From positions 1-64,000 of IMG/VR virus record IMGVR_UViG_3300045988_087149: 64,000 nt of DNA; one strand, given 5' to 3'. Every line of letters starts with the position of its first letter. Within the stretch, counting starts at the first letter, position 1. The DNA is from a virus. The notes below the pieces were generated by a model, which saw nothing but the letters and a program-made list of their open reading frames with translations, had not been told where the DNA came from and searched no databases. Shown here piece after piece: positions 7,860-9,042 of the stretch. The translations under genes and the position numbers were made by a program.

Positions 7860-8285
7860 ATGGCTAAAAGTAGTAATTACTCTATCAGTGTTGATGTTGA
7901 TCTTGATTTAAAAGACATTGACAGTAAATTAAAATCAAAGAAATATAGCCTCCCCATTGATACAACTGGCGCAAAAGAAGCTAAGGATTCAATAGACAGA
8001 ATTGCGCAAGCTACAGAAAATCTCGACAAAAAGACCAAGAAAGTAAATATAACATATCAGCAATTTAGGCAAATGCTTGACTTAGCTACTAATGCGCTAA
8101 GTAATATGTATGAGCAAGTAAGAAATCTTGATTCAGCTACAACAGAGCTGAAGAAGGTATCTGATTTGCAAGGCGCGTCGCTCGATAAATATGTATCTAA
8201 ACTGAGTAAGATTGGTCAAACAGTTGGCCGCACCGGTAAACCAAATCGGTCTGAGCCGGTATGTTGCGATGGTAAAGCAGCATAG
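7860..8285 (+). CDS. tail tape measure protein, exon 1. The ORF as read runs 16 codons into intron B; the predicted splice is after 8237.
   Basis: The N-terminal ~126 aa are coiled-coil-like and end ...SKLSKIGQTVGRTG, typical of the region preceding a TMP core. The body at 9043 continues with no SD of its own. Confidence 0.7.
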   Translation: MAKSSNYSISVDVDLDLKDIDSKLKSKKYSLPIDTTGAKEAKDSIDRIAQATENLDKKTKKVNITYQQFRQMLDLATNALSNMYEQVRNLDSATTELKKVSDLQGASLDKYVSKLSKIGQTVGRTGKPNRSEPVCCDGKAA

Positions 8286-8576
8286 AGAACAGCCCCTAAA
8301 CCCTTGAAAGCCTCAAGAGCCTTATCACTACAACATGAGGATGAGAAAAGCCTGAGTGTGAAAACAATTCATTATTAACAATGAATTAGTGCGAAAGCAG
8401 AAAGACGATAAGGATGATTCCATGGTTGAAAAACCTAAAGAATCAATGATAAATAATGTATCGTAAAAGGGCAGATTGGGCGCGAAGTCCTGATGAGGGA
8501 TGTGTCAATCGAATATACAGGGCGGCCCTCCAATTATATAGGGCGAAGAAATATTCAGGAAGGGATTGAAAACCCC

Positions 8577-8605
8577 TTGACAAATTATCTAATATGTGCT
8601 ATGTT
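8577..8605 (+). promoter_or_regulatory. sigma-70-type promoter inside intron B
   Basis: TTGACA (8577-8582), 17-nt spacer, TGc-TATGTT extended -10 (8597-8605), followed by AAGGAGG SD (8617-8623). Confidence 0.55.
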
Positions 8606-8631
8606 ATAGATACTTAAAGGAGGTATCTATT

Positions 8632-8823
8632 ATGTTTGCTACGTTTCTAATCATGCTGATTGCACCGGGCATTGGTATTTTTGTTTTATACTGTGTTATT
8701 CGCGGCTTATTTGGCAAGCATGATAAATCCCATAATCACTATTCATACCATTATGTTGATGATGAAGAACAGCGTATCAACGAATGGGGCTTAGATGATG
8801 ATTGGCGTTGGGGGAAATTGTAA
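8632..8823 (+). CDS. small single-pass membrane protein (intron B cargo 1)
   Basis: 63 aa from the ATG at 8632 (the track start at 8596 lies within the promoter). It has the hydrophobic helix FATFLIMLIAPGIGIFVLYCVI and an acidic/aromatic tail ending DDDWRWGKL. Confidence 0.5.
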   Translation: MFATFLIMLIAPGIGIFVLYCVIRGLFGKHDKSHNHYSYHYVDDEEQRINEWGLDDDWRWGKL

Positions 8824-9026
8824 TGGAAAACGCATATATGGCAATTATTATCTTTGCACTTATTTTCTTTTGTTGGTTTACATATAAGTGTTGTATGAGC
8901 GGTTATACGACAAAGAAAAGAAATCCAGATGATTATATGGAAATCAACAGAAAGCAACGCGAAAAAGATATAGCACAAGTAAAAATCCAAGAAAAGTATG
9001 ACAATGATTGGGGATATATTAGATAA
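8823..9026 (+). CDS. small single-pass membrane protein (intron B cargo 2)
   Basis: 67 aa with TAATG overlap to cargo 1. It has the helix AIIIFALIFFCWFTY and a charged tail ending YDNDWGYIR, the same D-[DN]-DW motif as cargo 1. Confidence 0.5.
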   Translation: MENAYMAIIIFALIFFCWFTYKCCMSGYTTKKRNPDDYMEINRKQREKDIAQVKIQEKYDNDWGYIR

Positions 9027-9042
9027 TTTATAACTGTCAGAG

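Follow-up and report, generated by a model that had tools for sequence, protein, structure and literature searches.

A probable group I intron in a phage tape measure gene encloses a predicted cassette of small membrane-protein genes in place of a homing endonuclease

To our knowledge, the group I introns of bacteria and phages are treated either as free of open reading frames (ORFs) or as vehicles for homing endonucleases; IStrons, which bear a transposon, are the exception. The nrdD (sunY) intron of phage T4 with its I-TevII gene was reportedly described by Xu and Shub in 1989 and by Michel and co-workers in 1992, and the control of I-TevI expression in the T4 td intron is said to go back to Gott and co-workers in 1988. 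In HK97, gp15 is reportedly a moron that adjoins the tape measure protein (TMP) gene and encodes an exclusion protein targeting the TMP, a finding credited to Cumby and co-workers in 2012, and Ltp of the S. thermophilus phage TP-J34 is said to act on the incoming TMP. In the IStrons CdISt1 and BcISt1, a group I intron carries an IS200/605 element at its 3' end (PMC3984707, PMC4227781). Cluster J mycobacteriophages provide an example of a phage tail or TMP gene that holds a group I intron (PMC3706429). Here we analysed 64,000 nucleotides (nt) of viral DNA, positions 1 to 64,000 of the IMG/VR record IMGVR_UViG_3300045988_087149 (the window), in which the TMP gene is interrupted by an insert (Table 1). 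An earlier note, made from the letters of the window alone, had proposed a group I intron that carries, in the place of a homing endonuclease, a cassette of small membrane-protein genes driven by a promoter. Intron-less homologues, covariation, the promoter class and selection on the coding sequences bear this proposal out, and we consider it probable that the element is a self-splicing intron with an autonomously expressed membrane-protein cassette.

The TMP gene is split, and the borders 8237|8238 and 9036|9037 are fixed by intron-less homologues. The ORF 7860-8285 encodes, as had been stated, a TMP-like N-terminus ending in GRTG; it then reads through 15 junk codons, one fewer than had been counted, to the in-frame stop TAG at 8283-85. 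The frame of the 1680-residue body opens at 9034, after the stop TAA at 9031-9033 and merely 9 nt ahead of its ATG at 9043, which is preceded by no Shine-Dalgarno (SD) sequence, again as described before. In the homologue of the Enterocloster phage PMBT24, ARTADEMVEAAT is aligned by tblastn without a gap to GRTG|SEMVEAAT, and GLTVARTADEMVEAATEF is the residue-for-residue counterpart of GQTVGRTG|SEMVEAATNF. When exon 1 is fused to the body, a single tblastn segment runs across the junction in the intact TMPs of other phages. The fused protein also matches the Pfam profile PhageMin_Tail with 73.9 bits over profile positions 5-201, compared with 62.6 bits over 19-201 for the unfused one. According to the PMBT24 alignment, tblastn and the completed Pfam match, the insert corresponds to 8238-9036. 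Two guanosines had been offered as the terminal guanosine (omega-G); the intron ends with G9036, whereas G9042 is not the splice site because two conserved residues would be deleted.

The search for intron-less TMP alleles that the earlier note had suggested thus yielded PMBT24, which fixes the junction, and a distant locus, L016 (32% identical; loci are given L numbers here), which is contiguous; the insert is absent from both. In all 14 close TMP relatives from IMG/VR, the same codon boundary is interrupted by 613-800 nt. The set of variants was enlarged by pattern searches to 38 unique inserts and 5 more divergent ones, 43 in all, from about 60 metagenomic contigs. Over this set the length is 601-1068 nt, with an identical codon boundary in the close relatives. 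In 37 of the 38 variants, an in-frame stop is reached 9 or 16 codons past the 5' splice site; such a stop near the intron start is usual for phage introns (PMC3073962).

The secondary structure was built by hand and scored on an alignment of 31 sequences, with two kinds of controls, in which the 3' partners were slid by 1-3 columns or the data were shuffled 500 times. Standard pairing was found in 96.3% of the cells, compared with 29.5-44.8% in the slid controls. Double-sided changes were found in 35 of the 84 pairs (1-9 in the slid controls), and the covariation score was 0.26 (0.01-0.05). None of the 500 shuffles matched the observed value on four of the five measures, namely the share of paired cells, the pairs and the cells with double-sided changes and the covariation score, and 20 of 500 did so on the count of further pair types. 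RNAalifold, which does not treat pseudoknots, independently returned P1, P2, P5a, P5b, both GAAA-tetraloop hairpins, P6/P6a, P7, P8 and P9. The order of the helices and the crossing of P3 and P7 into a pseudoknot correspond to the group I topology, and compensatory changes occur in P3, P5, P6, P7, P8 and P9, including a register-shifting compensation of P3 in L052.

The pair G8511-C8556 of P7 is invariant, and the relatives L070 and L071 possess the canonical P7 GACUA/UAGUC. The segments GUCAAUC-GAAUA (GUCAAUCGAAUAUA) and GAAGAAA-UAUUC (GAAGAAAUAUUC) resemble the consensus of the Rfam family RF00028, GUUCAaA-GACUA (GUUCAaAGACUA) and gAAGAUA-UAGUC (gAAGAUAUAGUC). A P7 formed by 8512-17 and 9015-20, as proposed earlier, had to be given up: TATA(Y)T is missing from tails of the L004 type, and the strand 8552-56 covaries instead. 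Our first ideas for P4, which were partners for TTGGGCGCG and CCCTT/AAGGG as P4 itself, were dropped or demoted on the C-G to U-A change in P3 and the L052 change in P5. The hairpins P7.1/P7.2, the mark of subgroups IA1/IA2, are not present between P7 and the 3' strand of P3, where only 4 nt (8516-8519) are found.

A P1 of 6 base pairs (bp) ending in a U-G wobble had been suggested. The wobble at the 5' splice site stands, but the helix has only 5 bp, 8233-37/8255-59, because T8260 covaries with 8284 and is assigned to P2. The exon and guide strands change in concert, to CTGGT/GCCAG in two loci and to GCGGT/GCCGC in two others. The pair at the 5' splice site is U-G in 63 of 68 loci and C-G in the other 5. 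On the exon-2 side, the partner of the P10 guide reads TCAGA, or TCGGA with a G-U pair in some relatives, and is complementary in all variants. The final base of the intron is G at all 15 boundaries set by tblastn alone. The covariation between exon and guide, P10 and the terminal G argue specifically for splicing, which we infer from these comparisons.

The cargo had been placed between the halves of P7, in the manner of the endonuclease genes in P8 of two other introns of the window (A and C, see below). With P7 at 8511-15/8552-56, however, the whole core lies within 8238-8580, and the cargo is therefore located downstream of a complete P1-P9 core. P9 is directly followed by one strand of a long-range helix, P9.x, whose other strand lies beyond the cargo. 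The mean duplex energy of cognate P9.x strands is -14.7 kcal/mol, compared with -7.0 kcal/mol for non-cognate ones. Complementarity is kept in at least seven sequence types, such as AAAUUAUCUAAUA/UAUUAGAUAAUUU, ...UUCAAUA/UAUUGAA..., CUUGCGAU/AUCGCAAG and AUUUAAUCUUUU/AAAAGAUUAAA. The 3' splice site is only 7 nt past P9.x, and the cargo forms the loop of this 3'-terminal helix.

The cargo consists of two coupled ORFs of 63 and 67 amino acids (aa) joined by a TAATG overlap, as reported in the earlier note. Both products have a single hydrophobic segment at the N-terminus and an acidic-aromatic motif at the C-terminus. In the relatives, the same slot is occupied by 1-3 genes from about eight families, encoding proteins of 60-110 aa with 1-4 hydrophobic segments. 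N-terminal hydrophobic segments are present in 39 of 39 parsed cargo proteins, and most of the proteins end in acidic-aromatic motifs (YDNDWG, YDDWGF, YDNDYG, LDNDYG and DDERWG). The residues right after the membrane segment are mostly basic, which suggests by the positive-inside rule that the tail is cytoplasmic. The ratio of nonsynonymous to synonymous substitution rates (dN/dS) is 0.02-0.44 overall, 0.02-0.18 for the ORF1 family and 0.22-0.44 for the ORF2 family, while dS within the cargo families reaches 1.5 or is saturated. These low ratios at high dS indicate that the cargo ORFs are real genes and subject to purifying selection. Among 5.8 billion proteins clustered at 90% identity, 386 clusters (61-67 aa) are homologous to ORF2 and 36 (63-72 aa) to ORF1; a look-up of these clusters returned no names, all of them being unannotated. 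In every context inspected, the cargo homologues are flanked by TMP exon 1 on one side and by the TMP body on the other. In L067, the second cargo slot, about 630-700 nt into the intron, is a remnant of a hydrophobic ORF of 22 codons that ends in the conserved tail. This suggests, from its sequence, a decaying cargo gene and a turnover, by deletion, of genes inside the cassette.

That the cargo is not an endonuclease also holds: all 43 variants contain only small ORFs with transmembrane (TM) segments, and none of the homing endonuclease classes (LAGLIDADG, GIY-YIG, HNH, His-Cys, PD-(D/E)XK and EDxHD) nor any other nuclease family matches the cargo. When the eight cargo families were searched against Pfam, PHROG, PADLOC and NCBIfam, PADLOC matched none of them and the rest gave sub-threshold noise, so that no superinfection-exclusion or defence family was recognized. 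As a leading guess, held tentatively and by analogy, the cargo might act early at the membrane and exclude superinfecting related phages by interfering with TMP-mediated DNA entry. Exclusion is ranked first because the proteins are small and membrane-bound, the promoter belongs to an early class, families and copy numbers turn over, and the genes are linked to the TMP gene. Alternatively, the cargo may modulate lysis, as an antiholin or in its timing, or act as a host-directed toxin or takeover factor, which we regard as possible though somewhat doubtful. One to four TM segments followed by charged C-terminal tails are the generic architecture of holins and antiholins, and no sequence feature discriminates between these roles. 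On the other hand, no holin family matches the cargo, and a recognizable pair of holin (phrog_6918) and endolysin (phrog_3513) genes is present elsewhere, at 24567-25588 in the late operon. An early-class promoter and the rapid turnover of families and copy number would also suit genes of conflict better than a core lysis function.

The promoter pointed out in the earlier note, TTGACA (8577-82) and TGcTATGTT (8597-8605) with a 17-nt spacer, followed by the SD sequence AAGGAGG, was found as described. The motif TTGACA-N14-TGnTATnnT occurs 15 times in the window, compared with 0.95 expected. Twelve of the 15 copies head the early module on the minus strand, and the late module on the plus strand has none besides that of the intron. 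Strong extended -10 promoters of the family TTGACA-N14-TGnTATAAT are spread over 28030-63688, mostly on the minus strand, and belong also to the direct-repeat families D1, D2 and D4. The intron promoter is kept in all intron variants, and in a local consensus scan it is among the joint best sites (10 of 12) and the sole one with a TG extension. Another explanation accepts the group I intron but denies the ORFs a promoter of their own; any translation would draw on the late pre-mRNA or on the intron after excision, and the promoter-like site would follow from the constraints on P9 and the long-range helix. The -35 box does overlap the 3' strand of P9, and the spacer is itself a strand of P9.x, so RNA constraint could conserve these bases. 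A local scan found no terminator after the cargo. Both boxes are nevertheless retained where P9 is displaced to a position 10-13 nt upstream (L004, L034 and L052 types) or the spacer is unrelated. Thus, RNA constraints alone are an insufficient explanation, and the motif is that of the over-represented early class of this phage.

A hairpin encloses the ribosome-binding site (RBS) of ORF1, with AAGG in its loop and the 3' part of the RBS paired. Folding was modelled for about 20 different leaders, which belong to several unrelated sequence types. From the -10 box onwards the energies are -5.6 to -10.2 kcal/mol, whereas from the inferred transcription start, 7 nt past the -10 box, they are about 0 to -2 kcal/mol, with L042 as an outlier at -5.1 kcal/mol. 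The hairpin may therefore mask the RBS in late read-through RNA and leave it free in RNA initiated at the promoter, as these models suggest. Sequestered RBSs are known in phage intron ORFs, including that of I-TevI, and the entry of ribosomes impairs splicing (PMC3073962). The position of the 5' arm just upstream of the inferred start, in leaders that are otherwise unrelated, would be sensible only with initiation there, and an intron without its own promoter is unlikely on this evidence. Morons have a promoter and a terminator of their own; the predicted cassette is preceded by a conserved promoter, and no terminator was found after the cargo, so that promoter-derived RNA would continue into exon 2.

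We propose the following course of events, in which the start site, the timing and the control by the hairpin are inferred from sequence. In late infection, read-through transcripts of the tail operon would contain the whole element, and the P1-P9 core would fold within its first 345 nt or so. The 16-bp helix 8582-97/9014-29 would loop out the cargo of about 420 nt and draw the remote 3' end to the core, and P10 (8250-54/9037-41) would align exon 2. Guanosine-initiated splicing would then join GRTG to SEMVEAAT and give the mRNA for a TMP of 1808 aa. In this RNA the hairpin would partly occlude the RBS of the cargo and keep ribosomes off the ribozyme. In early infection, a host polymerase of the sigma-A type would start near 8612, from the promoter that is superimposed on P9 and the long-range helix. 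The early RNA would contain neither the ribozyme nor the 5' strand of P9.x, and the hairpin would be without its 5' arm, so that ORF1 and the translationally coupled ORF2 could be translated into two small single-pass membrane proteins. In its widest form, the scheme holds that the fast-evolving cassette is expressed as an early mRNA and is later erased from the TMP mRNA by self-splicing, that the helices doubling as promoter elements set the fate of each transcript, and that alleles for exclusion, or a similar conflict, are linked by their place inside the TMP gene to a TMP allele that escapes them. We offer this last version as speculation and would not rate its chances highly.

Several observations weigh against the reading of the insert as a self-splicing intron with an autonomous cassette. 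The C in place of U at the 5' splice site in five loci is a weak point. P4 has 3 bp that are invariant and hence unproven, and RNAalifold favours an alternative pairing of GCCC and CCCUU; the assignment of P4 and P5 therefore rests on the L052 compensation and the topology. P9.0, sought between AAC(U/C)G and J7/9, shows a partial correlation only. P9.x is weak in the tail type of L004, L005 and L011 (-3.6 to -4.3 kcal/mol) and in L052 (-5.0 kcal/mol). The search with RF00028 advised in the earlier note gave no match to the intron, either at the gathering threshold (50 bits) over the window or at E<=10 over 8100-9200, and L070, despite its canonical P7, scores 11.6 bits (E=3.8). The same search gave 37.8 and 20.6 bits for intron C, 19.9 bits for intron A and 58 bits for the ORF-less intron L019; A and C fall below the gathering score because their ORFs split the model. 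The missing terminator is a further such point, as is the cargo function, which has no homology support and, for exclusion, is argued by analogy.

A decayed, cofactor-dependent or inefficient ribozyme, that is, a domesticated remnant in place of an autonomous self-splicing intron, would agree with the short invariant P4, the failure of the covariance model and the C-G pair in five loci. The first 340 nt or so of the intron, however, are 91-96% identical, whereas the flanking exons of the same phages are 64-78% identical, and compensatory changes are frequent. The conservation of the core and these changes indicate strong ongoing selection on the fold. The TMP is also needed at full length. Such a remnant is very unlikely. 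It is extremely improbable that no splicing occurs and that the insert is an intergenic moron between separately translated TMP genes of 126 and 1680 aa, with the RNA structure serving regulation, for example: the missing RF00028 match and the gene callers of public data, which list a distinct protein of 141 aa for exon 1, favour this view, but the body has no RBS and a frame that opens just before its ATG, intron-less homologues are continuous exactly over the junction, the last codons of exon 1 covary with an intron sequence 20 nt farther downstream, next to which lie 5 nt complementary to exon 2, neither relation being predicted by a two-gene model, and the helices reproduce the group I topology with its P3/P7 pseudoknot.

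Table 1. Features of the split TMP gene, its intron and the cargo, with positions in the window.
Feature	Position	Strand	Remarks
TMP exon 1	7860..8237	+	126 codons, end ...GQTVGRTG; from ORF listing, tblastn, Pfam
Group I intron	8238..9036	+	799 nt, after T8237; last base G9036
TMP exon 2 (SEMVEAAT...)	9037..14085	+	spliced product would be 1808 aa
P1	8233..8259	+	exon CCGGU 8233-37 / guide GCCGG 8255-59; wobble U8237-G8255
P10 guide half	8250..8254	+	UCUGA, invariant; pairs with exon-2 UCAGA 9037-41
P2 hairpin	8260..8284	+	8260-67/8277-84; double-sided changes in 5/8 pairs, three sequence types; RNAalifold
P3	8292..8295 / 8520-23	+	GCCC/GGGC; C-G to U-A in 5/31 sequences, two backgrounds
P4	8301-03/8478-80	+	3 bp, invariant; least certain helix
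P5	8310-13/8469-72	+	G-C to U-A change in L052
P5a (P5 extension, 8320-8464)	8320-26/8407-13	+	covaries
P5b	8333-40/8352-59	+	covaries
Optional hairpin in P5 extension	8366-87	+	
GAAA hairpins	8390-99 and 8424-35	+	both covary
P5c	8416-20/8440-44	+	covaries
P5d	8446-64	+	
P6	8482-84/8503-05	+	covaries; P4-P6 domain is 8301..8505
P6a	8488-90/8498-8500	+	covaries
P7	8511-15/8552-56	+	GAAUA/UAUUC; A-U to G-C in 8/31 sequences
P8	8525-29/8540-44	+	two pairs with double-sided changes; loop holds an inserted hairpin in L015
J8/7		+	GAAGAAA; between P8 and P7 3' strand
P9 hairpin	8560-64/8574-78	+	AAGGG/CCCUU; double-sided changes in 5/5 pairs; 3' strand overlaps -35 box
P9.x 5' strand (long-range helix)	8582..8597	+	also promoter spacer; directly after P9
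P9.x 3' strand (long-range helix)	9014..9029	+	overlaps ORF2 stop codon
Intron-internal promoter (predicted)	8577..8605	+	extended -10; inferred start near 8612
RBS hairpin	8606..8630	+	AUAGAUAC(UU) / (AG)GUAUCUAU flank AAGGAGG; 8606-15/8621-30 in minimum-energy fold
Cargo ORF1	8632..8823	+	63 aa, MFATFLIMLIAPGIGIFVLYCVIRGLFGK...RINEWGLDDDWRWGKL; one N-terminal TM segment
Cargo ORF2	8823..9026	+	67 aa, MENAYMAIIIFALIFFCWFTYKCCMSG...KYDNDWGYIR; one N-terminal TM segment

Two further group I introns are found in the window. One of them, A (about 4355-5600), belongs to a virion structural gene (3694-4353), the other, C (about 16996-18450), to a phrog_27355 gene (16231-16995). Their endonuclease ORFs, 4667-5497 and 17304-18347, are located in P8 and contain DUF7487 and DUF559/MTES_1575 domains (PHROG 'homing endonuclease'). 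The earlier note had listed sequence blocks common to the TMP intron (intron B), A (about 4398-4570) and C (about 17022-17196). The sharing was confirmed and corresponds to the peripheral domain of P5, with P5a CCTTATC/GATAAGG and the GAAA-tetraloop hairpins, but CCCCTAAA is not structurally equivalent in B and in A and C. As a distinctive block, CCCCTAAA was also rejected for its frequency, which is not above chance (3 compared with 1.5 expected). A fixed-spacing search for another of the listed blocks, ATGGTTNAAANCCTAAA, gave no matches because the spacing differs between the introns. The P5a/P5b segment is 89.6% identical over 48 nt to the ORF-less intron L019 (MT837526). Introns A, C and L019 thus resemble B in their P5a/P5b/P5c domain with GAAA tetraloops. 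Unlike B, introns A and C possess two P7.1/P7.2-like hairpins between P7 and the 3' strand of P3, a longer P4, endonuclease ORFs in P8 and matches to RF00028.

In the TMP genes of this clade, up to three or four introns are found at different sites (L007, L009, L010, L012, L014, L015, L070, L071 and L080). Among the further sites are those after exon-2 residues 118 and 184, within exon 1 and 9 codons past the intron studied here. At residue 118, L009 has a 349-nt ORF-less intron, while L010, L012 and L014 have the same intron with an endonuclease ORF of about 1.1 kb, which makes them a natural pair with and without the endonuclease. In pairs among L002-L015, the ribozyme core is 91-96% identical in nt, whereas TMP exon 1 is 64-68% identical in nt and 35-54% in aa. 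Conservation of the core above that of the exons would point either to a very strong RNA constraint or to exchange of the intron between diverged TMP alleles without an endonuclease gene.

The window corresponds to the left and central parts of a siphovirus-like phage genome of roughly 80-100 kb. Late structural genes occupy about 1-27 kb on the plus strand, and the early and replication module on the minus strand includes genes for NrdD, an NrdG-like protein, dUTPase and a RecD-like helicase. The nearest isolates are Enterocloster phages, with 37-39% TMP identity by tblastn of the fused TMP; the close relatives are all uncultivated contigs from the human gut. A RuvC-like gene (7335-7856) is the upstream neighbour of the TMP gene, and the order is the same in PMBT24. 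The lifestyle is provisionally taken as lytic, an integrase having been looked for only within 28-40 kb. A nucleotide search of 50,697 phage records gave a single 48-nt match, so that the TMP intron is present in none of these isolates. A scan of a genome collection with the core pattern gave seven matches, six of them in unrelated Prevotella-type coding sequence, about the chance expectation, and it yielded no host or prophage information. In the seventh, L075 (SFEA01000039.1, 20.8 kb, from a metagenome-assembled genome (MAG) labelled 'Bacteroidales bacterium'), the TMP intron is found again, with a cargo gene for 65 aa. As L075 probably derives from a phage and was binned with the Bacteroidales MAG, it is unreliable as host evidence. 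Where the late module gives way to the early one, shortly downstream of the early-type promoter at 28030, a free-standing HNH endonuclease gene (28167-28874) is followed by a 177-aa ORF (28932-29465), whose N-terminus resembles class II bacteriocins below the Pfam cut-off (E=2e-4). At 22021-24317, two paralogous tail-fibre-like genes contain repeated Gly-rich GGTGGNGG tracts (repeat families D5-D7, D14 and D16).

If the proposed reading is correct, an intron without a mobility gene has been fixed in a whole clade of human-gut phages with genomes of roughly 80-100 kb, and it would clearly exemplify an intron that persists because of its cargo and not because of an ability to spread. With promoter elements superimposed on ribozyme helices, it would also be a natural design of great compactness. 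The cargo families define an unannotated superfamily of phage small membrane proteins (386 and 36 metagenome clusters) with a testable link to the TMP. The TMP genes of these phages are mis-annotated as two genes, and the Rfam model misses this intron lineage. In a recent intron database, nuclease signatures are sought solely in ORFs of 120 aa or more (PMC11835236), and small cargo such as that of the TMP intron is therefore systematically missed.

An ORF located 3' of the core, intron-internal signals with a masked RBS and, in IStrons, non-endonuclease cargo are already known. In a non-exhaustive literature search, we found no description of a phage group I intron that holds solely a selected and variable cassette of small membrane-protein genes, of promoter elements superimposed on P9 and the helix that closes the cargo, or of the clade-wide fixation of an intron without a mobility gene.

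The td intron of T4 with I-TevI (PMC3073962) is similar to the TMP intron in that its ORF has expression signals of its own and an in-frame stop lies just inside the intron. In td, however, the intron belongs to an early gene, with late release of the ORF, whereas in the TMP intron the host gene is late, the promoter is of an early class and the ORFs encode no nuclease. Like the cargo, HK97 gp15 and Ltp are reportedly encoded by small genes for membrane-associated proteins, with their own promoters, in the late tail region and linked to the TMP. Those genes are free-standing between ORFs of temperate phages, whereas the cargo lies inside the TMP coding sequence and would be removed as RNA; they share no sequence similarity with the cargo, and an exclusion role is suggested by analogy. 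In IStrons and in the TMP intron alike, a ribozyme at the 5' end is the splice-out chassis for a cargo other than a homing endonuclease near the 3' end, and both are found in Firmicutes-associated elements. No IS200/605 transposase, TnpB or nuclease domain was found in the cargo, and the analogy is limited to cargo placement: IStrons owe their mobility to their cargo, a transposon (TnpA/TnpB), whereas the TMP intron occupies one fixed site in one gene. The nrdD (sunY) intron of T4 is reported to have the same plan as the TMP intron, a compact core at the 5' end with the ORF downstream of the core, and its remote 3' splice site is reportedly brought back by 3'-terminal pairings and P10. The cargo of nrdD is a homing endonuclease, whereas the TMP intron carries one to three genes for small membrane proteins, with a predicted promoter in P9 and the long-range helix.

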